64,000 nt of DNA from an uncultured Candidatus Saccharimonadales bacterium (GTDB taxonomy: Bacteria > Patescibacteriota > Saccharimonadia > UBA4664): the NCBI GenBank assembly GCA_964609585.1, contig CAZSRA010000001.1, positions 287,290-351,289 on the forward strand, in the 5' to 3' direction. The notes beneath the pieces were generated by a model that saw nothing but the letters and a program-made list of their open reading frames with translations, was not told where the DNA came from and did not search any database. Of the stretch, positions 3,030 to 29,742 are shown piece by piece. Each line of letters starts with the position of its first letter. The first letter of the stretch is position 1. Position numbers and translations under genes: made by a program.

Positions 3030-3062
3030 ACACGATCAAACCCATTCTGCACGCAGGTGATG

Positions 3063-3068: not shown

Positions 3069-3076
3069 GGTGGCTT

Positions 3077-4665: not shown

Positions 4666-4678
4666 TAACCAAGTAAAA

Positions 4679-6607: not shown

Positions 6608-6691
6608 GAGTGATCTCCTAATTGTCTGGGTGCCCTCATTGTGAGATGAAAATACGTTAGCATGTGATGCGGTGCAGGTTCAATTTTGGAG

Positions 6692-7369: not shown

Positions 7370-7449
7370 AATACACCGCAGGCAAGGGGTGGCCGTTGTA
7401 GAAGTTGGAGTTGACAGGGTCTGTATGTAGTATCGTATACTCAGCTTAA

Positions 7450-7465
7450 GCACTATATGTTGTGT
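7450..7465 (+). promoter_or_regulatory. Candidate NrdR box upstream of the RNR operon
   Basis: gCACTATATgTTGTGt matches 14 of 16 positions of the palindromic NrdR consensus acaCwAtATaTwGtgt; it lies ~180 nt upstream of the nrdA start. Confidence 0.35.
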
Positions 7466-7641
7466 ATGTGCTAGGAGATACCGGAGATGAGACGCCGGCA
7501 ATTATTCGGGGGGATACGGCCCGAATCTCCTCATTTCTTGAGCCCAGAAGCTTCTTTCGGCAGCATTAGTCGGTGAAACTTCCGCCTACTCTTGAGGTGG
7601 CTTTTTATTTCTTAAAATTTCAAAAAAATGAGAGGGGCCGA

Positions 7642-10029: not shown

Positions 10030-10063
10030 TTTTTAAAACGTATATAAGAGGGAGATTATTGCG

Positions 10064-10270
10064 ATGGGATTTAACAACAATGCTGTAGCTGAGGCGGATG
10101 TAACGACTGAGGCAACCGATGAAGTGGCTGCTAGGCTTGCTGCTATTGCCGAGGCGGTAGCGGCCCGCACGCAGGGTATGACCGACAATGCACCAGCACG
10201 CAATTTGAGCGAGGGCATGGCTTGCCCGGTAGATCCAGCTGAACGCGCGCTGTGCGATAGCTGCCAGTAG
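10064..10270 (+). CDS. Small acidic Ala-rich protein (68 aa) with C-terminal Cys cluster, between nrdA and nrdB
   Basis: Strong SD AAGAGGGAG 9 nt upstream of the ATG; C-terminus ...MACPVDPAERALCDSCQ. The antisense ORF covering the same span is low-complexity. Confidence 0.4.
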   Translation: MGFNNNAVAEADVTTEATDEVAARLAAIAEAVAARTQGMTDNAPARNLSEGMACPVDPAERALCDSCQ

Positions 10271-10303
10271 AACATATTAACTAGTAGGGGCGACAAGAGA
10301 TTT

Positions 10304-11320
10304 ATGAAGATTTTAGGATCAGGTATTCAAGACGGATTACTTTTAAAACCCATACATTATCAATGGGCCTACGATTTGTATAACCAGGCCGTGGCAAATA
10401 CTTGGTTTCCTAACGAGATTCAGTTGGGCGAAGATCTGGCCGACTGGAAGAAGATGAGCGATGAGGAGCGGCACGCACTCACCTTTCTTATGAGTTACTT
10501 CAACCCGAATGAGCTCTTGGTGAACAAAGCGCTAGCGTTTGGCGTATATCCGTACATTAATGCGGCTGAGTGCCATTTGTATCTGGCTAAGCAAATGTGG
10601 GAAGAGGCCAACCACTGCATGAGCTTTGAATATGTGCTGGAGACATTTCCGATTGACCGCGAGCAAGCATATGCGGCGCATGTGGACACGCCAAGCATGG
10701 CGCGCAAGGAAGCGTTTGAGGTTAAATACATCAAACGTATGACGGAGCAGACGCTTGATATTGCGACGACCGAAGGCAAAAAAGATTTTGTGCGCAACTT
10801 GGTGGCCTACAACATTATCCTAGAGGGCATTTGGTTTTATAGTGGGTTTATGGTGGCGCTTAGCTTCCGTCAGCGCAATCTGCTGCGTAACTTTGGGTCG
10901 CTGATCGACTGGATTGTACGGGATGAGAGCTTGCATTTGAAGTTTGGTATTAATTTGATTTTGACCGTACTTGATGAGAACGAAGATTTGCAGACGCCGG
11001 AATTTGCGGACGAAATTAAGCAGATGATCCTGGACGGTGTCGAGATGGAGACAAAGTACAATGAAGATTTGCTGCCAAACGGAATTTTGGGACTGAATGC
11101 GAGCTACATTAATCAGTACGTGAAATATTTGGCTGATCGCCGCCTGGAAGAGCTTGGTTTTGGATCGCACTACAACGTGAGTAATCCGGCTAAATGGATG
11201 GCGACGGCCAACGATACACTGCAGCTCGTGAATTTCTTTGAGGCTACTAACACGAGTTATGAGGTAAACGCCCAGGCTGGCGGCGCAGGCTCTGGTTCGA
11301 AGGAGCGCAAAGATGGCTAG
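10304..11320 (+). CDS. nrdB: Ribonucleotide reductase class I beta subunit; ligand pattern E70 / E101-x-x-H104 / F108 / E...ESLH suggests a class Ic-like (tyrosyl-radical-free) R2
   Basis: Ferritin-like di-metal motifs WEEANH and RDESLH. With E101/H104 aligned to the canonical ExxH, the residue at the radical-Tyr position (H+4) is Phe (HCMSF). The first ligand, 31 residues upstream, is Glu (NPNE), not Asp. Confidence 0.85.
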   Translation: MKILGSGIQDGLLLKPIHYQWAYDLYNQAVANTWFPNEIQLGEDLADWKKMSDEERHALTFLMSYFNPNELLVNKALAFGVYPYINAAECHLYLAKQMWEEANHCMSFEYVLETFPIDREQAYAAHVDTPSMARKEAFEVKYIKRMTEQTLDIATTEGKKDFVRNLVAYNIILEGIWFYSGFMVALSFRQRNLLRNFGSLIDWIVRDESLHLKFGINLILTVLDENEDLQTPEFADEIKQMILDGVEMETKYNEDLLPNGILGLNASYINQYVKYLADRRLEELGFGSHYNVSNPAKWMATANDTLQLVNFFEATNTSYEVNAQAGGAGSGSKERKDG

Positions 11321-11443
11321 GCGTAGGTTTGGCGTTACGCGTCATACCCCGGGTTCGATGCATGAGCTCATGGAGCTGCCACTGACTCGAGCGGTTGTGA
11401 TGAGCGAGCTTGTGCTTTTGATGTGGGTACTCGTTGTGAAGCG

Positions 11444-12709
11444 ATGAGCCGCAAGGTTTTGGTGCCCGATGGCGCTTCGTTCCTACGGAAGCTGCTAGCG
11501 TTTTCGGGGCCAGGGTATTTGGTGGCGGTTGGGTATATGGATCCGGGCAACTGGGCGACCGATTTGGCGGGTGGATCGGGATTTGGTTATAGCTTGTTGT
11601 TTGTGGTGCTTGTGTCGAGCGTGATGGCGATGTTTTTGCAGTATTTGGCTATCAAGCTCGGTGTGGTTACGGGCAAGAATTTGGCACAGCTGTGCGGTGA
11701 GGTATTTCCAAGGCCAGTGAGGCTGGGATTGTGGGCGATGGCGGAAACAATGATCGTCGCTTGCGACTTGGCGGAAGTGATTGGTACGGCGATCGCGCTT
11801 AATTTACTGTTTCATATTCCGCTAATGATCGGTGTGATTTTGACAGCCGGAGATGTCTTGGTGCTTTTGGTGTTGCAACGAAGAGGCGTGCGATCGCTTG
11901 AGGCACTGGTGATAACACTTGTGATCACAGTACTTGTGTGTTTCGGCTTGGAACTGGTGTTTTCGGCACCTCAGCTTGCGGCATTGTGGGGTGGATTTCT
12001 GCCAACCACCGAGATATTTTCGCGGTCGGATATGCTGTATGTGGCGGTTGGAATTGTGGGGGCTACGGTGATGCCGCACAACTTGTATTTGCACTCGGCC
12101 GTGGTGCAGTCACGCCAGATTGGTTCGAGTGAGGCAGCGAAGCGCGAGGCGATCCGGTTTGCGACGATTGATTCGACGTTAGCCTTAACGCTTGCGGCTT
12201 TTGTAAACATGGCGATTTTGGCCGTAGCGGCAGCTACCTTTTTTGCTCATGGTCGAACGGGAGTAGTGGAGATTGGTGAGGCGTATCGATTGCTTACTCC
12301 CCTACTCGGTGTGGGGGCGGCGAGTGTAGTGTTTGCCGTGGCGTTGCTGGCCTCGGGTCAAACCTCGACTATTACGGGAACGATGGCGGGGCAGGTTATT
12401 ATGGAGGGTTTCCTGCATCTGCACATGCGTCCGTGGATTCGGCGGCTTATTACGCGGGGGCTCGCGATTGTACCGGCGGTGGTAGTTGTGGTTTTGTATG
12501 GAGGTTCGGGACTCTCGAAATTGCTTATTTTGAGCCAAGTGATCTTGAGTGTGCAATTGTCGTTTGCGGTGTGGCCGTTGGTGGTTTTTACGAGTCGAAA
12601 GAAATGGGTGGGGGTGTTTGCAAATTCTAGTCTTATGAGACTAGCAGCGGGCGGCGTGGCGGCGTTGATATCAAGCTTGAATCTGTGGCTAGTATTAAAA
12701 CTCGTTTGA
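11444..12709 (+). CDS. mntH: Nramp-family divalent metal (Mn2+/Fe2+) transporter
   Basis: Signature GPGYLVAVGYMDPGNWATDLAGG (DPGN motif) and 11-12 TM helices. Start is ambiguous: ATG at 11444 (MSRKVL) or GTG at 11423. Confidence 0.8.
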   Translation: MSRKVLVPDGASFLRKLLAFSGPGYLVAVGYMDPGNWATDLAGGSGFGYSLLFVVLVSSVMAMFLQYLAIKLGVVTGKNLAQLCGEVFPRPVRLGLWAMAETMIVACDLAEVIGTAIALNLLFHIPLMIGVILTAGDVLVLLVLQRRGVRSLEALVITLVITVLVCFGLELVFSAPQLAALWGGFLPTTEIFSRSDMLYVAVGIVGATVMPHNLYLHSAVVQSRQIGSSEAAKREAIRFATIDSTLALTLAAFVNMAILAVAAATFFAHGRTGVVEIGEAYRLLTPLLGVGAASVVFAVALLASGQTSTITGTMAGQVIMEGFLHLHMRPWIRRLITRGLAIVPAVVVVVLYGGSGLSKLLILSQVILSVQLSFAVWPLVVFTSRKKWVGVFANSSLMRLAAGGVAALISSLNLWLVLKLV

Positions 12710-12846
12710 TGGGCGAGATCTATTTATTTTTGGCTGTTAATCTGAAAAAAGTATGCTATATTTGTCGGCGGCCTCGGTAACGAGGCCTGTTCTCGCAAAA
12801 AACCATCCCATCCGTTTCCCGAAAGTGCTTGGAGGTGTTCGCACCT

Positions 12847-13971
12847 ATGTCACTACTGATGCTTGGGCATATGTCACACAAGGCAATGCTCTACGGTGCA
12901 ATGTACGCCCTGCTATCCTCGATCCACAAGCCCCTCATCAAGGTAACGAGGAAGAGCCTCGGCCACCCGGCCACGAGGTCCGATCCGCGCAACTTCGTGC
13001 TCATCAACGCTATGTACGCGACGGTGCTCTTGGCCGTCATTACGGGGATTCTACTACTGGTCTTCCCCGTCCCGCACGTGGACCCGATGTTGTTCTTGCT
13101 TCCGGCACTCCTGGCTGGCTGCCTGCAATTCATCGGTGGGACTCAGGGCACGGCGGCATTTGAAGAGGGTAATCTGGGCCTGATCGTGCCGTTTAACGGC
13201 CTGGTTCCCCTGGTTCAATTGTTCATCGTGTGGGGGGTCAAGGGACGGGAACCCAAGATCGTCGGGCTCATTGGCGTGGCGCTCGTGGCGTTTGGGGTTT
13301 TCGTTGCTTACCAGAAGAAGGCGGCTGCGGCCAGCCCTGCTCCGGTGGCTGTGGCGGGGGCTCCTCGTACTTGGCTGGGGCGATCTTTGTATGGCCACCC
13401 AGGTCGACGCTACGGGATTGCGCTGACAGCTTGGACGATCTACGCTTTCCCGCTGACCTCGGCTACGGGGGCTATCACCTCGAAGTTCTACCCGGCGGCG
13501 CAGCACAAGCTGCCGCCAGTCGCGCCGTACCTCACATCGGGTGTGGTGCTGCTCGTGATGACGGTTCTCGGAACGATTCACTGCTACTACAACCGAGTGG
13601 TGGAGCTTCAGGACCTAGCCGTCGCTACCGGTAGCGGTTCTACGGGTTTGCTCAAAGAGGCCTTCATCGAGATGAGACGATCGGTGCGGAGTGGCGCAGT
13701 GGAGCTGCGTCGCCTGTTCGTCATCAGCGCCTCTTTGGTTGCGATCGAGCAGTACTTCGAGCTCACCGGTCTTTGGATCGGGCCGATTCCGGCAGTATCG
13801 GCGCTGTTTAAGCTCTCGATCTTCTTCAACGTGCCGATGAGTTGGCTCGTCTTCTGGTGCTTCTCCAAGTTTGGCCGCAGGAGATGGGGGGTTGAGCCAG
13901 GTGAGCGGCTAACGCTCCGCATCATAGTCACGGCGATCTTGGTCACCTTTGGGGCCATTCTGATCGGCTAA
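12847..13971 (+). CDS. Polytopic membrane protein, function unknown (G+C-rich gene)
   Basis: GGAGGTG SD at 12831-12837, 9 nt before the ATG at 12847 (MSLLMLGH...); the tracked ORF begins at an upstream TTG. Multiple hydrophobic helices; G+C is higher than neighbours by eye. Confidence 0.55.
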   Translation: MSLLMLGHMSHKAMLYGAMYALLSSIHKPLIKVTRKSLGHPATRSDPRNFVLINAMYATVLLAVITGILLLVFPVPHVDPMLFLLPALLAGCLQFIGGTQGTAAFEEGNLGLIVPFNGLVPLVQLFIVWGVKGREPKIVGLIGVALVAFGVFVAYQKKAAAASPAPVAVAGAPRTWLGRSLYGHPGRRYGIALTAWTIYAFPLTSATGAITSKFYPAAQHKLPPVAPYLTSGVVLLVMTVLGTIHCYYNRVVELQDLAVATGSGSTGLLKEAFIEMRRSVRSGAVELRRLFVISASLVAIEQYFELTGLWIGPIPAVSALFKLSIFFNVPMSWLVFWCFSKFGRRRWGVEPGERLTLRIIVTAILVTFGAILIG

Positions 13972-14127
13972 CAGGTTTTTTTGCGGGAGGAGCCGGCCGC
14001 TGGACTTAAGGGTGAGAACTCTAGAGTTTGGCGCGCCGGCTTTTCGCGTTTTTAACTTTGGGCTGGAATTGACGGCTGCATCACTGATTTATCGACGCCG
14101 TAAGAAATTCTTAAGAAGCAAGACACA

Positions 14128-14577
14128 TCATGAACGAGTTGGCTCAACGTTTGGGCCAAGAAAATACTCAAGTCGTTTTGAATGGCCGGCGGATCCTGTG
14201 CGTTCACGTTCTTTGTCGGCTGCGACTGCATCAAACCATGATTGCGGCGACGTGGTGTGTGGATCGAACTTGGCACCCCAGGTTGCAAGTTCTGCGAGAA
14301 TAGGCGCGATTGCCAAGCCCTTTTCGGTTACATAATAGAAGTCTTTGCGCTTATCGGTGTCGTGGGGTCTTTTGGCTACGATCCCCTGCTCTTCTAGGCG
14401 GGCAAGGCGAACGGTGAGTACTTGGGTGGAGATGCCTTCTTTTGAATTTAGGAATTCACCGTAGGTGTGTTTGTCGCGGTCGACAATATCGCGAATGATA
14501 AGCAGTGACCATGGGTCGCCAAATGCTTCGAGGGAGAAATTAATGGGGCAATGAGATTTGGTATCTGTGCGCTTCAT
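14128..14577 (-). CDS. HxlR-family winged-helix transcriptional regulator
   Basis: CPINFSLEAFGDPWSLLIIRDI...YGEF....GISTQVLTVRLARLEEQGIV is the typical HxlR/MarR-like wHTH core. It is divergent from the amidase gene. Confidence 0.7.
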   Translation of the reverse strand: MKRTDTKSHCPINFSLEAFGDPWSLLIIRDIVDRDKHTYGEFLNSKEGISTQVLTVRLARLEEQGIVAKRPHDTDKRKDFYYVTEKGLAIAPILAELATWGAKFDPHTTSPQSWFDAVAADKERERTGSAGHSKRLEYFLGPNVEPTRS

Positions 14578-14631
14578 GGTTTCATTATAGCATAGTTTAC
14601 TTTAATAATCAAAGTATGATATGCTCCCGTT

Positions 14632-15849
14632 ATGAATAAGAACTATCATTTTCAAACTATCAACGATTTAAGCGCCCTGATTCGAGAAGGCAAGGTGTCG
14701 CCGGTAGATCTCGTGAAAGAATGCCTCGATAGGATCGAGAAGCTTAACCCGACTCTTAATGCCTTCATTACGGTGACGGCCGAGCAGGCCTTGGCCGATG
14801 CGAAAATGGCTGAAGAGGAAATTAAGGCTGGCAAGTGGCGCGGACCTTTGCATGGTATTCCAGTGGCGTTTAAGGATTTGTACGACACAGCTGGCATTAA
14901 AACGACAGCAGCTTTTGAGCATTTTCAGAACCGGGTTCCGAAGAAGGATGCTGTCGCCGTTACGAAACTCAAGGAAGCGGGCGCGATTATCGTCGGCAAA
15001 ACCAATATGCATATGCTTGCGATGGGGACTACCTCGAATGTGAGTTTTTATGGGCCGGTGCATAATCCATGGAACGAAGCATATATTGCTGGTGGTTCCT
15101 CGGGTGGTTCGGCGGCCGCGGTGGCTGCTGGTATGTGTTTTGCTACTATCGATACGGACGCGATCGGGTCTTGTCGGTTGCCCGCGGCTTGTTGCGGCGT
15201 TGTAGGCTATAAATGTACCTGGGGTTTGATCGACAACACTGGTATTTTGGACGGAGAGCAGGCGGATCCGATGATTATTAAGCTTGCAACCGTCGGGATT
15301 ACGACGCGGGATGTAGCCGATACGGCATTGGTGGCGGATGTGCTTGCCGGGAAGGCTTTCGCTGAATCTACGATTCAGAGTGAGGCTAAGCCGCGGATTG
15401 GCGTGGTAGTGAACTTTGGCGCGACAGATCCAGTGCGAGCAGCTTTCAACCGAGCCGCCGAGACATTTAAGAAGCTTGGCTATGACTTAACTGAGGTGAG
15501 CGCTCCTTTTAGCGAGAATCCTGACATGCAGGCCATCGACGCGAGCCGCGCTACGGCAAATGCGGACGTTTTTAAAGACGTTGACGTGCTGATTTTGCCC
15601 ACAACCGCAAGCGAAGTGCTCACGGCTTCAGCCGCAGGCGAGAATCCTCAGGCCTTGTCGCCTCAGAATACGTTTTTTGCTAATTACTTGGCTTTGCCTG
15701 CTGTTTCGGTGCCCAACGGCTTTGATGAGACTGGATTGCCAATTGGACTGCAAGTGGTGGGCAAGCAGGACGACGACGCAATGGTACTGAGGGTAGCAGA
15801 AGTATTCCAGAGTGCGACGAAATGGCACGATGAGCACCCGGCGATTTAA
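14632..15849 (+). CDS. Amidase-signature family amidase (GatA-like, short)
   Basis: Amidase signature GGSSGGSAAAVAAG plus catalytic Lys/Ser context (VAFKDLYDTAGIKTT). Confidence 0.8.
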   Translation: MNKNYHFQTINDLSALIREGKVSPVDLVKECLDRIEKLNPTLNAFITVTAEQALADAKMAEEEIKAGKWRGPLHGIPVAFKDLYDTAGIKTTAAFEHFQNRVPKKDAVAVTKLKEAGAIIVGKTNMHMLAMGTTSNVSFYGPVHNPWNEAYIAGGSSGGSAAAVAAGMCFATIDTDAIGSCRLPAACCGVVGYKCTWGLIDNTGILDGEQADPMIIKLATVGITTRDVADTALVADVLAGKAFAESTIQSEAKPRIGVVVNFGATDPVRAAFNRAAETFKKLGYDLTEVSAPFSENPDMQAIDASRATANADVFKDVDVLILPTTASEVLTASAAGENPQALSPQNTFFANYLALPAVSVPNGFDETGLPIGLQVVGKQDDDAMVLRVAEVFQSATKWHDEHPAI

Positions 15850-15856
15850 GGCTTTT

Positions 15857-17377
15857 TTAAGCGTATCCGGAGAAGAAATCAATCTTGATATTGCGACGGT
15901 GCACCCCTAGCTCGGCTAAATTTGTCTTCATGGCTTGTACCATGGAGTAGGTGCCAGAAATGTAGAACGTTCGCTCTAGATAGTCGGGCACTGTTTGCTT
16001 AATGAGCTCTGGTGTGATTCTGCCCGAGATGGTGTATGGGAGTCCTAAGACGTCCGTTTGCTGGGATAGGACATACGTGATATTTAGGCCTAGGGTGATG
16101 CGAGCTTGTTCGAATATCTCTTGGTAGGCAAGATCCTTTTGGTTTTGTGCTGAGTAGAGCATGGTGATAGTTCTGAGCTCGTGCTTATCGAGTAAGTATT
16201 TGGTCATACTCCGGAAGGGGGTGATGCCGATGCCGCCGGCTAAAAAGACAAGCTTTTTGGATTGGTCGTCTGGCATAACGAAATCGCCGGCAAGCTGAGA
16301 GGCCACTATTTGGGTGTCTTGAGTTATGTTTAGAAGTGCTTGCTTGAACGTGCTGCTTGGGTGATAGAATTTGACGCCTATTCGGATATCGGGCTCAGTC
16401 GGTGACGAAGCGAGCGTGAGGTAGCGCCGACTGCCGCGGGCGTCGGCGTGCTTGTGCGGTAACGTCCATTCGAGATATTGGCCAGGTTTGTAGTTGACGG
16501 GTTTGCCGGGCGAAAAGATAAAATCGGCTGTATTGCTGGCGATGGTTAAGCGTTGCTTGAAGGCAGGGAATAATTTGAATTTTGGACTTACGATGTATGC
16601 GAAGACGTTTCCAATGATTAGAGCGAGCTCTGGTGACGAGTAAAATTTGAGAATATGCACTTGAGGCGGGAGTAATGCGGCTACGAGAGCGGCGTACCAA
16701 AGTTGTTTTGTTTGGGTTGGCGGGGAGGTTTGAGGTTCTGTGAGCATAATAAAGCCGAGGAAAAAGACCGGTGAGCTAAGCATCATATTCTGCAAGCTTG
16801 CCAGAATGTTGCCAGAGCTAAAGAAAGAATAGGTAACGGTTGCAATTACTGAGACTGCGAAAAATCCGAGTATCATTGGTTCTTGTCGTAGTTTGCGCAT
16901 TATGAGAATTCCGCCGAGGATGACAAACGGCAACATAATGGCGGTGTCTACCCACCAGCTAGCGGTTTGTTTTGCACCAAGTGCCGTTAAGACGAGAGCT
17001 AGAGCGGCTGGGTTAAACAGATGTTTCTTGTTTATGGTTAAGAGGTATTTTGAAGCGATGGCCAGCCCGGAAGCCGCTAGCATAAAAATAATTCCAAAGC
17101 GGGTTAGGTCCGGTGTGATGATAAGAGCTAGAATCAAACCAGTAATGAGCGAAGATTCGCTATTGATGGGGGCCTCGAATACGTGTGCAAAAACGCGGTT
17201 TATAGCCCAGCAGGCGGCCACCAAAATTACGCTTGAGATGACGATATAGCTTGGGTTGTAGTGAAGATCACCTACGATCGCAAGGCCAACGGCGGCCAGC
17301 AATAGGCCCAAGAGATAGTAAAGGAGCAATCGGTACATCGTGATGGTATCGATAAAAGAATCGATTATTTTATACAT
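15857..17377 (-). CDS. Membrane-anchored FNR-like flavoprotein reductase (N-terminal ~8-TM domain + C-terminal FAD/NAD(P)-binding ferredoxin-reductase fold)
   Basis: C-terminal RRYLTLASSP (RxYS FAD motif) and LVFLAGGIGITPFRSM (NAD(P) GxGxxP motif). The N-terminal 280 aa are polytopic membrane, with no obvious bis-His heme pairs. Confidence 0.75.
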   Translation of the reverse strand: MYKIIDSFIDTITMYRLLLYYLLGLLLAAVGLAIVGDLHYNPSYIVISSVILVAACWAINRVFAHVFEAPINSESSLITGLILALIITPDLTRFGIIFMLAASGLAIASKYLLTINKKHLFNPAALALVLTALGAKQTASWWVDTAIMLPFVILGGILIMRKLRQEPMILGFFAVSVIATVTYSFFSSGNILASLQNMMLSSPVFFLGFIMLTEPQTSPPTQTKQLWYAALVAALLPPQVHILKFYSSPELALIIGNVFAYIVSPKFKLFPAFKQRLTIASNTADFIFSPGKPVNYKPGQYLEWTLPHKHADARGSRRYLTLASSPTEPDIRIGVKFYHPSSTFKQALLNITQDTQIVASQLAGDFVMPDDQSKKLVFLAGGIGITPFRSMTKYLLDKHELRTITMLYSAQNQKDLAYQEIFEQARITLGLNITYVLSQQTDVLGLPYTISGRITPELIKQTVPDYLERTFYISGTYSMVQAMKTNLAELGVHRRNIKIDFFSGYA

Positions 17378-18116
17378 CTGAGCCTACATATTTTTTGAAT
17401 CCACTCGTGAAGGTGGCGATTTTTTTCGAGTCAATCATATAGCCTTCTAGATCTCTCGTTTCCTCGATGAAGGAAATGCTGCGCTCGCTCATGGCAAAGG
17501 CGGCAGTTGCAAAGCGGTCGGCTTCGTAGACGTTTGGACCGATAACGGTAAGGCTTGCGATGTTGGCTAGGGGGTCGTTTTCGTCGAAGGGGTTGTAGAT
17601 GTGACTGCCGCGAATGTAGGTTCCTGACGTGGCCATGCCTTGGTTGTGGAGGTGCACAACTTTGACGATTTCGCCGAGATTAAAGGGGCTGCGGATGCCG
17701 ACGGCCCATGGCTGTCCTTGAGCATTTACGCCGTGAGCCTGGATGTCGCCACCGGCTTCAATGTAGAAGTTGCGGGCGCCGAGTTCTTGAAACTTATTGG
17801 CGGCATTTTGGATGGCCCAGCCTTTTACGAGCCCCGAAGGGTCGAGGCGGCCATTGTGTTCGATATTAAAGTATCCGTGCGTGAGTTTTGAGGTTTCGGC
17901 GCATAGCTTTAAGACGTGGAGCATCTCCTTGCTCCACTGGTTTCTACCGAGGCCATCATTGATTTTTGAGATTTCGCTTGATGGTTTGTAGGTGCTGTAG
18001 CGCTCATCGATAGTCTTAAAGTAGGTAAAAATGTTTTCGATGTCGGCGCCCATGATGTTTCTATCCAGCACTTCGATCGTAATAGGCATTCCCATAATGA
18101 TTTGAGTTTGTTTCAT
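17370..18116 (-). CDS. apbE: ApbE-family FAD:protein FMN transferase
   Basis: 248-aa ApbE fold (…GLVKGWAIQ…, …IEAGGDIQAHG…); overlaps the downstream reductase gene start by 8 nt. Confidence 0.8.
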   Translation of the reverse strand: MKQTQIIMGMPITIEVLDRNIMGADIENIFTYFKTIDERYSTYKPSSEISKINDGLGRNQWSKEMLHVLKLCAETSKLTHGYFNIEHNGRLDPSGLVKGWAIQNAANKFQELGARNFYIEAGGDIQAHGVNAQGQPWAVGIRSPFNLGEIVKVVHLHNQGMATSGTYIRGSHIYNPFDENDPLANIASLTVIGPNVYEADRFATAAFAMSERSISFIEETRDLEGYMIDSKKIATFTSGFKKYVGSDV

Positions 18117-18125
18117 ACTCTTTGT

Positions 18126-18581
18126 TTAGGCCTGCGATAACGCTGAGCTTAGTGATTGAGTGAAAGCTTGAGAGGTAAAGGTGGCTCCGGAAACGACTTG
18201 AACGTCAGCGCTTTGAGCCTGGATGGCTTCTTGCTGCAAATACGGCATGGCTTGGCTATTAATTTCGATAGAGGTTGAGTGCGTATCGGGATATTGCAAG
18301 AAGGTAACATTGGTTAATTTCCCGCCGGAGATCGTAGCCTTCACTTGAACGCTCCCGTAATAAGCATCGGCTACGGTACCGGTATAGGTACCATCTTTAT
18401 ACCGGGCAGCATTGGCTGCAGGCGGAGTTGCTGCGGAATTGTTTGAAATTAGCGGGCTTGGCGAAGCACTGCCTTCTGATAAGGATGCAGGCTTGGGTAA
18501 CGTTGGTGTTTCGTGGCGCATCCCCAAGCTATAGAGCATAAATATGCCAAAAACGCCGGCTGCAACAATAAATCTTTTCAT
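18126..18581 (-). CDS. Membrane-anchored FMN-binding domain protein (predicted flavinylation substrate)
   Basis: N-terminal TM anchor MKRFIVAAGVFGIFMLYSL, then an FMN_bind-type domain with the D-x(4)-SGAT flavinylation motif (DVQVVSGATFTS). Confidence 0.7.
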   Translation of the reverse strand: MKRFIVAAGVFGIFMLYSLGMRHETPTLPKPASLSEGSASPSPLISNNSAATPPAANAARYKDGTYTGTVADAYYGSVQVKATISGGKLTNVTFLQYPDTHSTSIEINSQAMPYLQQEAIQAQSADVQVVSGATFTSQAFTQSLSSALSQA

Positions 18582-18691
18582 TGCGACTAGTTTGTCAGAT
18601 TTTGCTGTAGATTTCCTGAGTTATGAGTGTGGTTGTCTTTCACAGCCGATGCGCGGATACTAAAAACAGTTATGTTGAAGAGTGGTGATTT

Positions 18692-19774
18692 ATGAACCGA
18701 CGTCTGTTTGTTGCTGCGGGTGTTGCCTTAGTACTTGGTATCGGAGTCTGGTCTGGACTAGCTACGAAAACTTATGGGCCTATTATTCAGGTAAGTATGG
18801 CGATTTCGGTCGTGGCGGCTCTGCTCAATATGCTGGCTGTTCCCTTTTTTCTTGGAGGTGTTCGCCAGTTTAAAGCCGAGCTGCAGCGGGCCTACCTCAT
18901 TCTTTGTATCGGTATTGGGATCTTTGGGTTTGCGCAGATTCAGTTACCATTCATCACGCTCTTTGACTGGTGGGGTTGGATTAATTCTGGTGGAATTGCC
19001 GTGCCGTACCTTGTGGGAGTTGTTTGTATGCTTTGGGGTATGCGGGTGTTCGCGGCACTTTTACGAGTAAAGCGATTTGGGACGTCGCCATTTGCGGCAT
19101 TTGGTTTGTCGGTGGTGCTGTCGCTTGCTGCCGTTTTGGTGCCGCATGTTAAGATCGCGACTGATGAGCTTACGTTTCATTTATCGCTTGCGATTAGTAT
19201 TTTTGATTCGGTATTTGTGAGCTTTGCGGCTGTGATTGCTTTTCAAATTCGAAGAATTATCGGCGCGACCTATATCCGGTCAATGAGCTGGCTGTGTGCT
19301 GCACTGGTAGTCGTTTCTGTTGCCGGCTGGCAGTATGTGGCGGTTCAATTAACGTTGCATACTGGTGACTGGTACTACGACTATACGGTTATGGTAGCTC
19401 CGTTTATTTTGGGCGGTTTGCTGTTGGTGGCGGCGGGGTATGCGTTTAGCAATATCAATGTTTGGTCGGGCGGTAGGGCAAGCCAGCGTTCGGCGTTGGA
19501 GCTGGATGTGGTGATGTATGTGGCGGGCTTGGTGTCTAATCCGTCGGAGATAAACTTGGCTTTGGAAGATGTGCGCCGGGTGACCTCGCACATGACGTTT
19601 GGACAGGCTTTATCGGATGAAGGCCGAGCGGTGATGGTGGGAGTATATGCAAAAATAGAGCTTTACCTGGTTGAGAATGATCCCTTGCGGACATTTTCGC
19701 GGGAAGAACTTCGGCACAGAATCGCCAAAGAGTTTGAACTGGGCGATCAGCCGAGCTTGCCATTGTGGGCTTAG
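18692..19774 (+). CDS. Hypothetical polytopic membrane protein (360 aa)
   Basis: Long ORF with ~8 hydrophobic segments; divergent from the FMN-binding/ApbE/reductase operon. Confidence 0.55.
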   Translation: MNRRLFVAAGVALVLGIGVWSGLATKTYGPIIQVSMAISVVAALLNMLAVPFFLGGVRQFKAELQRAYLILCIGIGIFGFAQIQLPFITLFDWWGWINSGGIAVPYLVGVVCMLWGMRVFAALLRVKRFGTSPFAAFGLSVVLSLAAVLVPHVKIATDELTFHLSLAISIFDSVFVSFAAVIAFQIRRIIGATYIRSMSWLCAALVVVSVAGWQYVAVQLTLHTGDWYYDYTVMVAPFILGGLLLVAAGYAFSNINVWSGGRASQRSALELDVVMYVAGLVSNPSEINLALEDVRRVTSHMTFGQALSDEGRAVMVGVYAKIELYLVENDPLRTFSREELRHRIAKEFELGDQPSLPLWA

Positions 19775-19891
19775 GGAAGGCTTTTTGTGTGAGGAGAAAT
19801 TTCCAGAACCTCTTTGATTAGCATATTGCTTTTCCTTGATTTCTGTTTTATAATACTCTTGATAAAATTTATGGAGGGTGTCGGAGTATGT

Positions 19892-20149
19892 ATGAGGATA
19901 GAGCTTTCCCCTGGTGAACTAACGAACGACCTCCAGCAAGTATTTACCGCACGATTTATAAGAGAGTCGGATTTGATTGCCGAGATTAAGAATGCACCGC
20001 ATGATATTGTGACGCGTTGGGCTGAATTAATGCGCGAACTTCATGATGGACTACCGGAAATTAAACGGGTTGGTTTTTGTGCGTATTGTGGTAGCACGAA
20101 TCGCCGAGACCAGTTTTGTGGTGATTGTGATCGCGTCTTTTTGGATTAG
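19892..20149 (+). CDS. Small zinc-ribbon protein (CxxC...CxxC)
   Basis: C-terminal CAYCGSTNRRDQFCGDCDRVF. I place the start at ATG 19892 (MRIELSPGEL); GGAGGGTG lies upstream at 19873-19880. The N-terminal extension in the ORF track looks non-coding. Confidence 0.45.
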   Translation: MRIELSPGELTNDLQQVFTARFIRESDLIAEIKNAPHDIVTRWAELMRELHDGLPEIKRVGFCAYCGSTNRRDQFCGDCDRVFLD

Positions 20150-20243
20150 TAAGCTTGTTTTTTGCGCTTATGTTTGATTAATGCTCTTACTTAGGAGTAT
20201 AACGCTATCACCCTGTCCCCCACTGTGAATGGAGGTGAGCTTA

Positions 20244-21791
20244 GTGCTCACACTCAGAATGAACCGTCTGCGGACGGGTTGTACCTTGGCACTGCGTTGT
20301 TGCGCGGGGCTGCTTGTGATGACGGCGATCTGGTATTTCGTGATCGTCATGATGCTTCGAAGCTTCCCCACCGATAATACCGAGATCCTCGGTGTGCAGA
20401 TCAGCGTCGGGGCTAGAGCGCCAGGCTTTAGCTTCTGCGGACCTGGTCAGTTGATGACCTACGGAAGTGCTGTGGCGATCCGAGCCATCAGCTCTTGCGG
20501 GCTTGTCCGGCCGGCGATCGAGACGCATGCATCGGGTCAGCAGATCGTGGCGGCTACAAAGGTGAAGGCTGCTTCTGGCGAAGCTGGGCACAAGATCGCT
20601 GCGGCTTACGCACATTGGGCGCTTGTGCGTAGCTTGTGGCTCTTGGGCGTGGCCGTTGTTTTGATAGGTGCTTTCGTCTGGTGGCGTCGTTCCCTGGACA
20701 AGGGGAAGGAGCCATTTGCCGCGACACTTCGGCGGGCCGGTCGACTGGGTGTCGTTTTGATGACGGCGCTGGCGTTGATGTGGGGCGGATCTTTGTGGTC
20801 GGCTTATGCTGGCTCACAGAATCTCAAGACTGTCCGGACGGTTGATCAGCTGTTTGGTTATAACGGCGGCCTTCGGGTTTCGCCAGCGCCCGTGGGTCCA
20901 CGTGTAGCCGGCAAGAACCTGGCGGTCATCGGGGACTCGCGAGTCTCCCCGTGGGAAGATCCGAAAACGCCTGGCTTCAAGCCGCTCGATCCGGAGCTCG
21001 TGACGTTCGACGGTCTGGTTTGCGCCAGAGGTAGCGATTCGCTAGCTGCGTTGCTCCAGCAACTCAATGGGGCTTCGCGGGTGCGGGCCGACAACCTGGC
21101 ATGCCCGAGTGCCACGATCGATCACGGATTGTTGGACGCGCAGCCCCGCAGCTACCAGGCTCCCGGCAGTGCGACGCCCGAAACTGTGATGATCGAGCCG
21201 CAGGTCGGTCTGCTCAAGCAGTTGACCGACTTGCAACAGGTGGTTGTAGTGATCGGGCCGAATGATGTTCACTGGTCGTTCCTGATGGGAACGTGTCTCG
21301 TCATCGGATGCGGCAATCCGGCGGCCGATAGCTCTGTGTCGTCGGAGCTGGCGAACTTCCAGACGTCGTACAACGACTTGCTGGCAGAACTCGCGGCTTT
21401 GCCGACTCATCCGGCGGTTGTGATCGTCGGTTCGTACGGACTCTATGACCCGGGGGCAGCTGGAACTACGTGCGCGGATCTGAAGTCGAGCGTGGGCTCG
21501 CACGATATCAATGCCTACGACATCGAGCAGATAGAAAAGTCGCGTACTGAGCTCAACGGCTTGCTCGAAGCTGGTGCCAAGCGCAAGGGGTTCGCGTATG
21601 TGGAGCCGCAACTAGCTCCCTTGTGCGCACCAGACCCAACGGGTGTGGGCGCTCAAATCGTCGGCACCAGCTCTCCCTACCGGTTCCATCCCACGCGGCT
21701 CGGTGAGCTTGTGCTCGCCGGGCAGGTCAACACCGCCCTGGACCACGCAAGGTTGTCGCTTCCCCCAGCCCTTGTGGGCAGCGGTCGCTAA
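20244..21791 (+). CDS. Membrane-anchored SGNH/GDSL-family hydrolase (G+C-rich gene)
   Basis: GGAGGTG SD at 20230-20237, then GTG at 20244. TM segments near the N-terminus, a GDS block (LAVIGDSRVS) and C-terminal HPT(R) consistent with an SGNH catalytic triad. Much higher G+C than flanks by eye. Confidence 0.7.
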   Translation: MLTLRMNRLRTGCTLALRCCAGLLVMTAIWYFVIVMMLRSFPTDNTEILGVQISVGARAPGFSFCGPGQLMTYGSAVAIRAISSCGLVRPAIETHASGQQIVAATKVKAASGEAGHKIAAAYAHWALVRSLWLLGVAVVLIGAFVWWRRSLDKGKEPFAATLRRAGRLGVVLMTALALMWGGSLWSAYAGSQNLKTVRTVDQLFGYNGGLRVSPAPVGPRVAGKNLAVIGDSRVSPWEDPKTPGFKPLDPELVTFDGLVCARGSDSLAALLQQLNGASRVRADNLACPSATIDHGLLDAQPRSYQAPGSATPETVMIEPQVGLLKQLTDLQQVVVVIGPNDVHWSFLMGTCLVIGCGNPAADSSVSSELANFQTSYNDLLAELAALPTHPAVVIVGSYGLYDPGAAGTTCADLKSSVGSHDINAYDIEQIEKSRTELNGLLEAGAKRKGFAYVEPQLAPLCAPDPTGVGAQIVGTSSPYRFHPTRLGELVLAGQVNTALDHARLSLPPALVGSGR

Positions 21792-21853
21792 AGCGATGAT
21801 CCCCGAATGACCCGTTCCTGCACCTTGTGTGTGGGGGCGGGTCCTCAATGTTT

Positions 21854-22396
21854 TTAGAGCAACCCGAGGTGGTGTAATCCGGCGTACCCGAGCGTGGTAT
21901 CGCTCATTTGGCCTGCGAATAGGTTTTCTTTGAATTGGCTGATGGAAAGCAGGGCCAATCGGCCGAACTCCGTTGCGTCTAATTTTGGCTCGGTTGCCGG
22001 TTTTGCGCTGCGACCGATGAACATATGTGATTTTCCGGTTGTATAGGCGTCTCGGTAATATGAGCCCAAATAGGTTAGATCTGCTGTATAGCCGGTTTCT
22101 TCGGCTAATTCTCGTTGGGCTGCAGACGGCGGGTTTTCGCCATTATCGATAGCTCCTCCTGGCAACTCGAACAGTAAGGCTTCGGGTCCGGGACGAAATT
22201 GCGCGAAGCATAGAATTTTGTGCTCTGGAGTTATGGCTAGGATTGCGGCTGCTCCATTTGAAGCGACGACATCGAAGTTGGCCGATTTTCCATTAGGAAG
22301 CGTAAACTCGCGTCGGAGTATCTTGCGATAGCCATCGTACACCAATGTTTCGTTTGTTTTGGTCCATGCGTCAGTTGATTTAGCATGCATTTTCAT
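21854..22396 (-). CDS. NUDIX hydrolase (ADP-ribose pyrophosphatase-like)
   Basis: Nudix box GGAIDNGENPPSAAQRELAEETGY. The start ATG at 22394-22396 overlaps the stop of the upstream DUF1653 gene (ATGA), so I place the start at M20 of the tracked ORF. Confidence 0.8.
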   Translation of the reverse strand: MKMHAKSTDAWTKTNETLVYDGYRKILRREFTLPNGKSANFDVVASNGAAAILAITPEHKILCFAQFRPGPEALLFELPGGAIDNGENPPSAAQRELAEETGYTADLTYLGSYYRDAYTTGKSHMFIGRSAKPATEPKLDATEFGRLALLSISQFKENLFAGQMSDTTLGYAGLHHLGLL

Positions 22397-22680
22397 CCGA
22401 TTCGAGTAAAGCGCTTTTGGAGCTTGCCATTTACTTCGACTTCTTCGATCCAACTTGAAACGGGGCGTATCCAGGTGAGGTTATCCCCGTACTCGGCCTG
22501 GTAGACTACGCAAGGCTCGTTGTCTTCTTCGCGCAGGGCAAGCGCAAGCACCTTGTAGCTAAGCTGTTTATAGTGCAGGTAGTGCGCGCCGACGGTTACT
22601 TGCTGGCTGGCTTCTGCTTGTTTGGCGGAGAGAACGGCTTGAGATGCTTTGGGGTGTTTCATGAACTTATTATAGATCAA
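22393..22680 (-). CDS. DUF1653-family small protein
   Basis: YLHYKQLSYKVLALALREEDNEPCVVYQAEYGDNLTWIRPVSSWIEEVEVNGK matches the DUF1653 pattern (YxHYKG...Y.V...A.H.E......VVY..LYGD...W.RP...F). Confidence 0.65.
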   Translation of the reverse strand: MIYNKFMKHPKASQAVLSAKQAEASQQVTVGAHYLHYKQLSYKVLALALREEDNEPCVVYQAEYGDNLTWIRPVSSWIEEVEVNGKLQKRFTRIG

Positions 22681-22717
22681 AGCCCCACTTGCCTTGTGCG
22701 TGCGGGGCTTTGTGTTT
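22679..22717. terminator. Putative terminator hairpin downstream of SRPBCC gene
   Basis: aaAGCCCCActtgccttgtgcGTGCGGGGCTttgtgttt: imperfect GC stem flanked by an A-tract and a T-tract. Confidence 0.35.
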
Positions 22718-22749
22718 GGGCAGCTAGCAGGTTGCTGCCAGGTATCTCT

Positions 22750-23235
22750 CTATTTCCCGGAAGTCATTGCTTTTTCGTCTTCGGTTGCTGGGCGCCCGGT
22801 TGCATTGGGGTGTCCTTTGCCGGTGACGATTAAATCCTTCATGCTGCTATTAATGTAGGTTGGCCAGGCATTAGAGCAAACTTCGTAGCACTCATAGGCT
22901 GGAACGAGACCTTTGTGGGTGAATTGAAGTTTAGTTTTGCCGTCTTCCTGGGAGATGTCAAAAATCATTTCGGTATCTACCCACTCAGTCTTGTCTTTGA
23001 TGAAACTCATATAGTTTTCAACCACGTGCCAAACGACTTTTTTGCCTGGAACAAATTCAGTTATCTTGATTTTGCAACGGTGAACGTCTTCGAAATGATA
23101 ATCAAACACGCTACCTAGCTTATCGGTGTCGCCTTCAATTTCTTCTGACCACCATCCTCTGGGGTTGGTAACGGCGGCAAAAACCTCTTCCGGGGTTTGG
23201 TCTACGGTAAATGATGTTGTGTAACTTTTATCCAT
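22750..23235 (-). CDS. SRPBCC-superfamily protein (AHSA1/polyketide-cyclase-like), paralog 1
   Basis: 161 aa; 45-50% identical by eye to the adjacent paralog (TTSFTVDQ.PEEVF.A..N.R.WWS....G.TDKLG..F.Y......H.K..ITEFVPGKK.VW...E.......K.EW..TE.IFDI...DGKT...FTHKGLVPA.ECY..CS.AW). Confidence 0.7.
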   Translation of the reverse strand: MDKSYTTSFTVDQTPEEVFAAVTNPRGWWSEEIEGDTDKLGSVFDYHFEDVHRCKIKITEFVPGKKVVWHVVENYMSFIKDKTEWVDTEMIFDISQEDGKTKLQFTHKGLVPAYECYEVCSNAWPTYINSSMKDLIVTGKGHPNATGRPATEDEKAMTSGK

Positions 23236-23254
23236 AATTTTTTAACTCCTGTGT

Positions 23255-23698
23255 TTATAAATCTTTCTGTGGTTTGCCGGTAGTGATGAACTCGCGCAAA
23301 CTAGCAACAGCACTACTCCAGGCGCTTGAGCAATTGTCGTAGCATTCGAAGGCAGGAACGAGTCCTTTGTGGGTGAAGCGAACGTTGGTTTTGCCATCTT
23401 TTTCTTCAATATCAAAGATGACTTCGGTGCCTTTCCACTCGTTTTTGTCTTTCACGAAATTAATGGAAGACTCGATAATGAGCCAAACAATTTTTTTACC
23501 AGGTACAAATTCGGTAATTCTTTGTTTGGTGTAGTGGAACTCTTTGTGGGCGTAGGTAAATTCAGCACCGAGTTTGTCGGTGTCACCTTGTGCGCCTGGG
23601 TCACCGCTCCACCAGCTGCGGACGTCATTTATGGCGTCGAAGACTTCCTTAGGACTTTGATCTACGGTGAATGTAGTAGTGTAGCCTTGATTATTCAT
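23255..23698 (-). CDS. SRPBCC-superfamily protein, paralog 2
   Basis: 147 aa, tandem paralog of 22750-23235. Confidence 0.7.
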   Translation of the reverse strand: MNNQGYTTTFTVDQSPKEVFDAINDVRSWWSGDPGAQGDTDKLGAEFTYAHKEFHYTKQRITEFVPGKKIVWLIIESSINFVKDKNEWKGTEVIFDIEEKDGKTNVRFTHKGLVPAFECYDNCSSAWSSAVASLREFITTGKPQKDL

Positions 23699-23758
23699 GA
23701 TATGTGCATACTCCTTTTGCTTAATTATTTGTCCTATGCCCTGCGGTGTCTAGGGCTT

Positions 23759-24454
23759 CTAGGACGGAATGACGAGTCGATCGACTGGACCAGATAGGAT
23801 TGATTTGATATGGCGACTGAAGTCATCGACGAGGACTTCGGTGTCGCCGCGGTCTAGGCCTTCGAGAGAAATACGGGCGACGTCACGCGGGTCCATTTTG
23901 GGACCGTTGATGATGCCTCGGATCATTTCGGTGTCAATTGGGCCAACGTGAACGCCAATTACGAGCGTACTTTGCGTTTCGAGCTCCTGACGGAGAGAGT
24001 TCGTGACCGACCATAAAGCAGCTTTAGTCGCGGCGTATGAACCTAATGGTAGCCAGGCGGCGACCGAAGTTATGACCATGAGTGTGCCGCCGCCGTTGGT
24101 TTTGAGGACGGGTGCCATAGCCTGTGAGACTTGGATGGGGCCAAAAACATTCGTTTCAAACTGGTTACGAATATTTGGCAAGGTGGCTGTTAAAATGGTG
24201 TCAGGCAAGAATATAGCCGCGTTATTTATGAGAACGTCGACGTCTGGTGCTAGCTCTGGTAGCTTGGCTATGGACGCGCTATCCGTAACATCCAACAAGA
24301 TGTTTACGATTCGGGGGTCTTTAAAATCATGTGGTTTGCGCGAAGTGGCGTACACTTTTGCTGCGCCTTTTGCTAGCAGCTCCTCGACGAGGGCTAAGCC
24401 GAGTCCCCTATTGGCGCCCGTCACTAAGGCGATTGAATCTTTAATGTTTTTCAA
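23759..24454 (-). CDS. Short-chain dehydrogenase/reductase (SDR)
   Basis: TGANRGLGLAL (TGxxxGxG) and YAATKAAL (YxxxK). I place the start at TTG 24452-24454, preceded by a perfect AGGAGT SD 6 nt upstream; the tracked ORF continues upstream in frame. Confidence 0.8.
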   Translation of the reverse strand: MKNIKDSIALVTGANRGLGLALVEELLAKGAAKVYATSRKPHDFKDPRIVNILLDVTDSASIAKLPELAPDVDVLINNAAIFLPDTILTATLPNIRNQFETNVFGPIQVSQAMAPVLKTNGGGTLMVITSVAAWLPLGSYAATKAALWSVTNSLRQELETQSTLVIGVHVGPIDTEMIRGIINGPKMDPRDVARISLEGLDRGDTEVLVDDFSRHIKSILSGPVDRLVIPS

Positions 24455-24538
24455 GTGAATACTCCTAAATTTACCGTTACGAAATAGATAGTACACAGAT
24501 CTGTTTACTTTTGCAAGTACATTTGCTATAATGCCTTT

Positions 24539-25093
24539 ATGAAAGCTTCAACTGCCAGTAAACCAAAAGACCGAATCATTGATGTCTCGGCTAAACTTTT
24601 CTATGGGCACGACGCGCACGCAATTGGCGTGGACCGAGTTTGCGAAGACGCCCACGTATCTAAGCGCACGCTATATAAGTATTTTCCGACCAAAGAGGTT
24701 TTAGTTTCTACGGCTATGGGCACGCTTGGACAAGCCTGGGCTGAGGCTTATATGGGTGCGGACTCAGACGACCCGGTTGAGCGCATTACGTATGTGTTTA
24801 CTTTGCTTGAGAGCAAGGCTGGGCTGGACGACTTTTATGGATGTCACCAAATGAACACGAGTATTGAGCTCAGGGACTCTGATGCTCCCGCAAAGGACAT
24901 GGCTAAAGCTTTGAAGCATGATCTTTACGACTACTTTCGGCAGCAGGCGGTTTTGCTTGCGGTAAAGGATCCCGATGAGCTGGCACAGCAACTGATACTG
25001 CTCTTTGATGGCTGCAGTGCTTGGATTGTGATGCGACGGGCGTTTCCGGCTTCGACTTTTAAGACGTTGGATTTATTGTTGGGTCGAGCGTAG
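24539..25093 (+). CDS. TetR-family transcriptional regulator
   Basis: N-terminal TetR HTH (RIIDVSAKLFYGHDAHAIGVDRVCEDAHVSKRTLYKYFPTKEVL); divergent from the SDR gene. Confidence 0.8.
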   Translation: MKASTASKPKDRIIDVSAKLFYGHDAHAIGVDRVCEDAHVSKRTLYKYFPTKEVLVSTAMGTLGQAWAEAYMGADSDDPVERITYVFTLLESKAGLDDFYGCHQMNTSIELRDSDAPAKDMAKALKHDLYDYFRQQAVLLAVKDPDELAQQLILLFDGCSAWIVMRRAFPASTFKTLDLLLGRA

Positions 25094-25101
25094 CTCGTTT
25101 T

Positions 25102-28515: not shown

Positions 28516-28645
28516 GGGAGCACTCCTGGTTATCAGTAATTCTTAATTCTCAAGCTTCGACTTTAACACACCTATCTACAGATAGGAAAGGCATTAACCA
28601 TCGAACAGGCTTGAGGGGGTATCGAGCCAGAATGAGTAATTCTAA

Positions 28646-29728: not shown

Positions 29729-29742
29729 AACGTCGCACTTGT

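Follow-up and report, generated by a model that had tools for sequence, protein, structure and literature searches.

A three-gene flavin operon of a Candidatus Saccharimonadales bacterium: an NQR/RNF-like system whose ApbE carries no export signal

Three genes at positions 15857-18581 of a 64,000-nucleotide stretch of contig CAZSRA010000001.1 from an uncultured Candidatus Saccharimonadales bacterium (the whole stretch is called the window here) form one unit, which encodes a flavin mononucleotide (FMN)-binding protein, an FMN transferase of the ApbE family and a membrane-embedded oxidoreductase for reduced nicotinamide adenine dinucleotide (phosphate), NAD(P)H. This operon almost certainly belongs to the NQR/RNF-like system that Méheust et al. 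defined in 2021 (eLife, PMC8238504), a flavinylation-associated cluster in which an N-terminal PF03116 domain and a C-terminal NqrF-type PF00175 domain lie on one protein; reports of the class come mostly from Actinobacteria and the candidate phyla radiation. The operon probably specifies an electron conduit of two subunits that spans the membrane, uses flavins only, has a dedicated ApbE maturase and leads from NAD(P)H to an extracytosolic acceptor. The architecture has been described and is neither orphan nor new; this is an ordinary member in a lineage from which the class was already reported. The class is widespread yet biochemically untouched, and its interest lies in that absent biochemistry and in an ApbE that is leaderless throughout the clade.

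Gene order, conservation and class membership

A first-pass annotation had proposed a three-gene flavin module here. Its three open reading frames (ORFs), all co-directional on the minus strand, were recovered at exactly its coordinates, and its suggested domain searches agreed: the product of gene 1 matched FMN_bind (PF04205; 43.2 bits, E 6e-11), that of gene 2 ApbE (PF02424; 141 bits, E 6e-41) and that of gene 3 NAD_binding_1 (PF00175; 44.2 bits, residues 378-484), with an additional match of gene 3 to NQR2_RnfD_RnfE (PF03116; 33.4 bits, above the gathering score of 27.7; residues 152-262). The operon and its parts are as follows.

18126..18581, minus strand: gene 1, a 151-residue membrane-anchored FMN_bind protein and predicted ApbE substrate, of the family of the NqrC/RnfG Pfam domain
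18519..18572, minus strand: N-terminal hydrophobic signal anchor of gene 1 (residues 4-21, after MKR), predicted N-in/C-out, no lipobox
18390..18518, minus strand: low-complexity tether of gene 1, rich in Ser, Thr, Pro, Ala and Asn (residues 22-64, 43 residues), joining anchor to FMN domain
18180..18191, minus strand: SGAT flavinylation motif of gene 1; Thr134 (18180..18182) is the predicted FMN phosphoester site and aligns with the SGAT of PDB 8p2a
17370..18116, minus strand: gene 2, a 248-residue leaderless FAD:protein FMN transferase of the ApbE family (FAD, flavin adenine dinucleotide)
17370..17377, minus strand: 8-nt overlap of the ApbE stop with the gene 3 start (ATGTATAA), read from the sequence
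15857..17377, minus strand: gene 3, a 506-residue fusion of an NqrB/RnfD-like membrane domain with a ferredoxin-NADP-reductase-type (FNR) module for FAD and NAD(P)H
16577..17377, minus strand: NqrB/RnfD-like domain of gene 3 (residues 1-267), about 10 transmembrane (TM) helices, predicted N-in/C-in, from PF03116 and fold matches
15860..16564, minus strand: FNR module of gene 3 (residues 272-506), predicted cytoplasmic, PF00175

The FMN_bind gene ends in a TAA stop and the ATG of the ApbE gene follows 9 nt further on, both ORFs being in the same frame. The 8-nt overlap at the next junction suggests translational coupling of ApbE with gene 3, and at other loci, likewise, the ApbE gene ends at, or just within, the start of the following gene. 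Read-through of the first two genes into an FMN_bind-ApbE fusion was considered and rejected: a plain TAA and three codons stand between them, and the C-terminus of the FMN_bind protein coincides with that of the solved domain 8p2a. A fused form was likewise found neither among 120 close ApbE homologues nor among 150 cluster representatives. Neither an FMN riboswitch nor another RNA element was found at the operon in an Rfam scan of the window. The only Rfam and ARAGORN matches were a ribosomal protein L10 leader on the minus strand at 60935..61098 (RF00557, 61.7 bits) and a minus-strand tRNA-Gln(TTG) at 42399..42473.

To examine conservation, one genome per GTDB species was scanned; at least 412 relatives were confirmed and 80 loci were kept, 76 of them with a complete gene. 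The order FMN_bind, ApbE, NqrB/FNR on one strand was found at 52 of the 76 species-level loci. ApbE was directly adjacent at a further nine, FMN_bind only was present at four, and 11 had neither, some of these lying at contig ends. Since the same order recurs in different species and phyla, the arrangement is far beyond chance, and the three genes are one unit. The 80 kept loci belong to five phyla and include many Patescibacteria classes, Ktedonobacteria and other Chloroflexota, Rhizobiales (Mesorhizobium, Kaistia), Spirochaetota and, among Actinomycetota, Microbacteriaceae and Arthrobacter. Gene 3 alone has more than 7000 scored homologues; 111 of the 120 listed carry PF03116 together with PF00175, the other nine being annotated with PF00175 only, and the closest named ones are from Candidatus Saccharimonadales/Saccharibacteria (61-66% identity). 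No paper tying the class to Saccharibacteria or Patescibacteria by name was found in the searched literature.

The locus agrees with the full definition of the class and shows no essential difference from it; it does lack the two-component system that adjoins the operon in its closest relatives. PF03116 and PF00175 lie on one protein. The definition asks for ApbE, FMN_bind or both no more than five genes away, with an export signal on one or more of them; here both are immediately upstream and the FMN_bind protein is anchored. The Nqr/Rnf set is partial within the 64-kb window, and the NqrB/RnfD-like subunit is without its flavinylated Thr motif, a feature of the class in Huang et al. 2024 (PMC10979944).

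The first-pass annotation had stated that the genes are not an Rnf or Nqr complex. This was right in that Pfam scans of 56 ORFs, including all operon neighbours, detected no other Nqr/Rnf subunit in the window. It had missed the NqrB/RnfD homology: the operon is a cut-down relative of Nqr/Rnf, made of NqrB/RnfD-like, FMN_bind and NqrF-like FNR parts. That public pipelines call close relatives 'RnfABCDGE type electron transport complex subunit D' would fit fragments of a conventional Rnf or Nqr complex, with the other subunits elsewhere in the genome. We regard this as having next to no chance of being correct. Gene 3 scores far under the NCBIfam cut-offs, with 18.7 bits against 207 for rnfD (TIGR01946) and 41.2 bits against 295 for nqrF, and falls outside the definitions of both Rnf and Na+-NQR. 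In addition, it has neither the flavinylated Thr motif of RnfD/NqrB nor the 2Fe-2S domain of NqrF (it contains one Cys), its FNR part is fused directly, and the unit, with no Rnf/Nqr subunit near it in 64 kb, is self-contained and kept in five phyla.

The predicted electron-carrying proteins and a probable outward path

Both reductase motifs of the earlier reading were found in the FNR module: RRYLTLASSP, an RxYS-type FAD motif, at residues 317-326 (16400..16429), and GGIGITPF, the GxGxxP nucleotide motif, at residues 381-388 (16214..16237). The protein ends in DFFSGYA, of which Tyr505 is invariant. A profile of 24 family members matched the NqrF FAD domain best among PDB entries (7qty, E 2.5e-13), together with flavohaemoglobins, and the Foldseek hits to the FNR half were flavohaemoglobin, GcoB, NqrF and the SpNOX dehydrogenase domain.

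The membrane domain, part of a fusion first called unusual, is no orphan: it is a remote NqrB/RnfD homologue, given the PF03116 match above threshold and the RnfD and NqrB folds. The AlphaFold2 model of full-length gene 3 (mean predicted local distance difference test score, pLDDT, 84.6) gave FNR-type matches only in Foldseek. The seven best matches of a model of the TM part alone were the RnfD chains 9eri_D, 8rbq_D, 8ahx_D and 7zc6_D (TM-score about 0.54-0.61), followed by three V. cholerae NqrB chains, and a membrane-domain profile run against PDB sequences had Azotobacter vinelandii RnfD (8ahx_D) as its sole match, a weak one (E 0.013). KH(I/L)FNPAA (residues 119-125) and TEPxTSP (213-219) are invariant motifs of the domain. 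Hydropathy and predicted helices indicated about 10 TM helices instead of the roughly eight first counted. The K/R-rich loops at 116-118, 161-164 and 266-275 all lie on one side, which places the termini, and hence the FNR module, in the cytoplasm.

The only invariant His residues of the membrane part are H119 and H241, on opposite faces, which agrees with the earlier remark that no haem-ligating His pairs are obvious, and the single Cys of gene 3 is not invariant; because of this, haem and Fe-S relays are unlikely. A haem-based membrane domain was rejected on the positions of H119 and H241 and on a fold that is of NqrB/RnfD and not of ferric-reductase type, and an Fe-S relay on the one variable Cys. 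No [ST]GA[ST] occurs anywhere in the 506-residue protein, and the outer-loop segment 136-142 (KQTASWW) contains no invariant Thr. A flavin-only path through the domain is a reasonable inference, and since haem-type His pairs are missing and only one Cys is present, we propose a non-covalent intramembrane flavin. NqrB, by analogy, has FMN and riboflavin sites. NOX-like and MsrQ-like proteins with a ferric-reductase domain and a C-terminal FNR module (SpNOX, for example) follow a similar plan, in which a membrane part and a cytoplasmic dehydrogenase for FAD and NAD(P)H form one protein that sends electrons outward, but theirs is a 6-TM domain with two haems at bis-His sites, whereas here the fold is the 10-TM one of NqrB/RnfD and the wire would be of flavin.

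NqrB and RnfD belong to ion-translocating complexes, and the matches that follow them in the fold search are urea transporters and ammonium channels. The domain might accordingly retain a Na+/H+ path and act as a redox-driven ion pump coupled to NAD(P)H oxidation. We consider such a pump very unlikely; the published proposal (PMC8238504, PMC10979944) is an NAD(P)H-driven, single unidirectional electron path to an extracytosolic acceptor, without the semicircular route of Nqr/Rnf.

In the FMN_bind protein, the 87-residue domain (residues 65-151) aligned end to end with PDB 8p2a (E 5e-16), the SGAT motif included. This structure is SaFMN3-D2 of Streptomyces azureus, in which ApbE-attached FMN was shown experimentally (PMC10339131). 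A PDB search with the gene 1 protein found no NqrC or RnfG chain at E<=1. Residues 126-137, DVQVVSGATFTS (18171..18206), contain D126-x4-S131-G-A-T134, so the D-x4-SGAT motif quoted in the first-pass annotation is present, with Thr134 as the predicted site. It is the sole [ST]GA[ST] across the three operon proteins, and an SGAT-type motif is kept in 51 of 52 listed FMN_bind orthologues, a list that includes one locus three times (L001-L003). No further flavinylation substrate, ApbE gene or NqrB-like gene was found in the window; the one other [ST]GA[ST] match there, in a patatin-like protein, is at chance level.

The anchor of this protein has a Kyte-Doolittle value of 1.74 in a 19-residue window and 2.09 in a 17-residue window. 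Across the 52 orthologues, the mean net charge of the anchor flanks was +2.0 on the N-terminal side and +0.1 on the C-terminal side, with the N-terminal flank the more positive in 46. By the positive-inside rule, the FMN domain is therefore predicted to be outside, and the topology estimates, made from hydropathy and charge bias only, agree with the first expectation of an external FMN domain and an internal FNR module. Orthologue tethers range from 12 to 178 residues (median 65) and consist to about 70% of S, T, P, A, G, N and Q. The description of gene 1 as lipoprotein-like was mistaken: the protein has no lipobox and cannot be a lipoprotein because it has no Cys at all, and a Cys falls within the anchor in just two of the 52 orthologues. 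Twin-arginine motifs were absent from the FMN_bind anchors inspected.

Domain identities, fold, motifs, operon structure and conserved synteny are established here, whereas topology, the direction of electron flow, the intramembrane cofactor and the acceptor are inferred. Taken together, these features are consistent with the following path. NAD(P)H would reduce the FAD of the cytoplasmic FNR module, and electrons would cross the membrane through the NqrB/RnfD-like domain, probably by way of one or more non-covalent flavins. They would then reach an FMN held covalently on Thr134 of the tethered FMN_bind protein at the outer face, to be passed to an extracytosolic acceptor; ApbE would have installed this FMN from FAD. 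Such NAD(P)H-driven electron export, already suggested in the first-pass annotation, matches the published class proposal and the topology estimates; it is not new, and its ApbE step is not straightforward. In Huang et al. 2024 (PMC10979944), an AlphaFold-multimer model of the Ktedonobacter racemifer complex has the FMN domain docked on the extracytosolic side, the NqrB/RnfD-like subunit is without its flavinylated threonine, and the FMN of the NqrC/RnfG-like subunit is suggested to enter the vacated flavin site.

The likeness to Na+-NQR of Vibrio cholerae extends to the NqrB fold, an FNR module nearest the FAD/NADH domain of NqrF, an ApbE maturase, and an FMN_bind protein sharing with NqrC its Pfam domain, N-terminal anchor and SGAT threonine. 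In contrast to Na+-NQR, three functional modules are carried here on two polypeptides, NqrA, NqrD and NqrE are missing from the window, the 2Fe-2S domain and the covalent FMN site of the NqrB-like part are absent, ApbE is not a lipoprotein, and the predicted flow is one-way and outward and not semicircular to quinone. With the Rnf complex, the operon shares the best structural matches of the membrane domain, which are RnfD chains; it differs in that the window holds no RnfA, RnfB, RnfC or RnfE and no ferredoxin-linked Fe-S subunits. Flavin-based extracellular electron transfer in Listeria monocytogenes (Ndh2, EetA/B, FmnB, PplA) also belongs to a monoderm, and there too an ApbE-type enzyme flavinylates a surface FMN_bind protein, which sends cytosolic reducing power outward. 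Listeria, however, uses the quinone pool, the lipoproteins FmnB and PplA and exported FAD, whereas here electrons from NAD(P)H would reach the flavoprotein directly through a single NqrB/FNR fusion, neither partner is a lipoprotein, and ApbE is without an export signal.

Saccharibacteria and other Patescibacteria have tiny genomes from which respiratory chains are mostly absent. In the saccharibacterial cell the operon is likely to regenerate NAD(P)+ or to reduce an external substrate, for example Fe(III). A self-contained outlet from NAD(P)H to the outside could be one of the few means by which these bacteria rebalance their redox cofactors or reduce iron and other compounds on the cell surface, possibly where the cell meets its host.

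A leaderless ApbE beside an export-type substrate

Aligned with solved ApbEs of V. cholerae (6nxi) and E. coli (4xgw), the gene 2 protein keeps their KGW, GGD, TSGxY, SH(I)xxP and ADxxxT segments, the presumed FAD, Mg2+ and catalytic segments. Relative to these enzymes, about 50 residues are missing internally, between residues 85 and 91. The protein begins MKQTQIIMGMP at the first conserved strand, where the domain itself starts. An in-frame TAA three codons before this start leaves no space for a signal peptide, and no N-terminal lipoprotein or Sec signal was found.

The same holds across relatives. Leaving aside ORF extensions that run into the gene upstream, all 70 ApbE ORFs beside NqrB/FNR genes begin at the conserved MG(M/T) strand without a hydrophobic leader. 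Among database homologues, the 120 closest have lengths of 235-262 residues and consist of the ApbE domain alone. A search of 1.8 billion cluster representatives yielded 153 with E <= 1e-30, and among the best 150 of these nearly all full-length entries start the domain within the first 20 or so residues; eight longer entries were inspected and proved to be frameshift or out-of-frame artefacts or to have non-hydrophobic extensions.

This result sits uneasily with the predicted place of the substrate, and it is one of the points that weigh against an outward conduit. The cluster ApbE showed neither a signal peptide nor a lipobox nor a twin-arginine motif at any of about 70 loci or in any of about 270 relatives from databases. 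Most characterised ApbEs are lipoproteins and are exported. Those known to have no leader act on substrates in the cytosol (PMC12052999). The cytosolic ApbE of Klebsiella pneumoniae, reviewed in the same article, resembles gene 2 in having no signal peptide, but its substrate is a soluble cytoplasmic fumarate reductase, whereas the sole candidate in this operon carries an export-type anchor. The predicted arrangement is thus a mismatch, with the FMN domain outside and the maturase inside. Leaderless ApbE is not mentioned in the searched text of PMC8238504 and PMC10979944. The remaining adverse points concern the conduit itself: the PF03116 match is weak (33 bits), the TM-only model is of moderate confidence (pLDDT 69.7; predicted template modelling score 0.74), and the intramembrane cofactor site is a putative one. 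No conserved acceptor gene was found beside the operon across the loci, a tblastn search of the window gave no homologue of the relatives' two-component system, and the searched literature yielded no experimental study of the NQR/RNF-like class.

The earlier idea that ApbE flavinylates an exported FMN_bind protein is not straightforward, given that this ApbE and all its cluster orthologues lack an export signal. As a tentative explanation, the cluster ApbE may work in the cytoplasm, in which case either FMN_bind would be flavinylated before translocation or the FMN domain would lie at the inner face and the published outward model would be wrong. Attachment of the cofactor first, followed by Sec-type export, would be a route not described for covalent flavoproteins. 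Possible resolutions of the mismatch are flavinylation before translocation, an inward FMN domain and an unrecognised export route for ApbE. A leaderless transferase facing an export-type substrate poses a concrete question about covalent flavoprotein maturation.

An inward FMN domain would make the system a minimal NAD(P)H:acceptor reductase: FMN_bind, flavinylated inside by the cytosolic ApbE, would carry electrons from FNR to the NqrB-like domain, which would reduce an acceptor in the membrane or at its outer face, for example quinone, as NqrB does. The clade-wide retention of a leaderless ApbE, the cytosolic substrates of its characterised counterparts and the translational coupling of ApbE to the membrane subunit would all fit this arrangement. 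The anchor charge bias (+2.0 against +0.1; 46 of 52) predicts the opposite orientation, N-in/C-out, a long tether rich in Ser, Thr and Pro is, as we read it, typical of exported proteins, and the extracytosolic docking in the AlphaFold-multimer model (PMC10979944) is likewise at odds with it. On balance, this cytoplasmic-face arrangement is unlikely, and the outward conduit is preferred.

Neighbouring genes and the rest of the window

The commonest extra neighbour of the operon in relatives is an OmpR-type two-component system, with a histidine kinase at 22 loci and a regulator at 17. Its genes directly precede the operon in the closest Saccharimonadales relatives and directly follow it, convergent, in Rhizobiales; examples are found at L084:5006-6680, L085:332-2010, L001:4987-6665 and, in Rhizobiales, L031:7491-9625. 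Metal genes occur as well. An Nramp gene is directly downstream at three loci (L006:7657-8904, L063:7512-8798, L065:7512-8798), VIT1 lies within about 2 kb of the operon at four and is directly downstream in one of them (L028, 7639-8373), and heavy-metal P-type ATPases are present at five. The window itself contains an Nramp gene at 11423..12709 (421 bits), 3 kb from the operon and beside an iron-dependent class I ribonucleotide reductase.

These neighbours bear on what the outward conduit might reduce. The system may serve assimilatory reduction of a metal (Fe3+, possibly Mn): the outward FMN would reduce it, and a divalent-metal transporter, for instance the Nramp of the window, would import it. 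This refinement of the conduit we hold to be possible but rather doubtful. In its favour are the Nramp, VIT1 and P-type ATPase genes of relatives, the Nramp gene of the window beside its ribonucleotide reductase, which would fit the iron-assimilation idea of Méheust et al., and the VIT1 that these authors noted in six such clusters (PMC8238504). On the other hand, only about nine of the 76 loci have metal neighbours, some with more than one of the three, three unrelated mixed-strand genes separate the window Nramp from the operon, and the commonest neighbour, the two-component system, points to no substrate. The loci with Nramp or VIT1 favour metal reduction in those cases, and the Nramp, VIT1 and two-component neighbours together hint at regulated metal reduction.

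Other genes near the operon were noted. A 360-residue multi-pass membrane protein on the plus strand (18692..19774) is divergent from it across a 110-bp gap, has no Pfam or NCBIfam match and has no homologue beside the operon at the 80 other loci. An HxlR/MarR-type regulator on the minus strand (14128..14577), whose best NCBIfam likeness, far under the cut-off, is the redox-responsive RrpB, is not conserved beside the operon elsewhere. The gene for glucose-6-phosphate dehydrogenase, a source of NADPH, is on the minus strand at 1551..3029, at a distance of about 13 kb; in a Saccharimonadales relative (L084:16725-17521) the distance to the operon is about 7 kb. This proximity is probably coincidental.

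Over the window as a whole, GC skew is positive in every 2-kb bin of 1..64000 (0.085 to 0.28; cumulative 5.36), whatever the gene orientation, which suggests that the entire window belongs to a single replichore whose strand asymmetry is unusually strong. Two GC peaks, at 20001..22000 (0.58) and 12001..14000 (0.57) against about 0.48-0.50 nearby, coincide with ORFs without a Pfam match, one of 520 residues at 20229..21791 and one for a 380-residue membrane protein at 12829..13971, and these regions may be acquired DNA. The minus-strand gene at 25102..28515 encodes a 1137-residue protein, probably a large surface protein, whose N-terminus is hydrophobic and in which the DUF4082 repeat occurs three times (464 bits). 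Finally, three tandem paralogues with RibD_C (dihydrofolate-reductase-like) domains, of 190-211 residues each, are encoded on the plus strand at 38579..40411.

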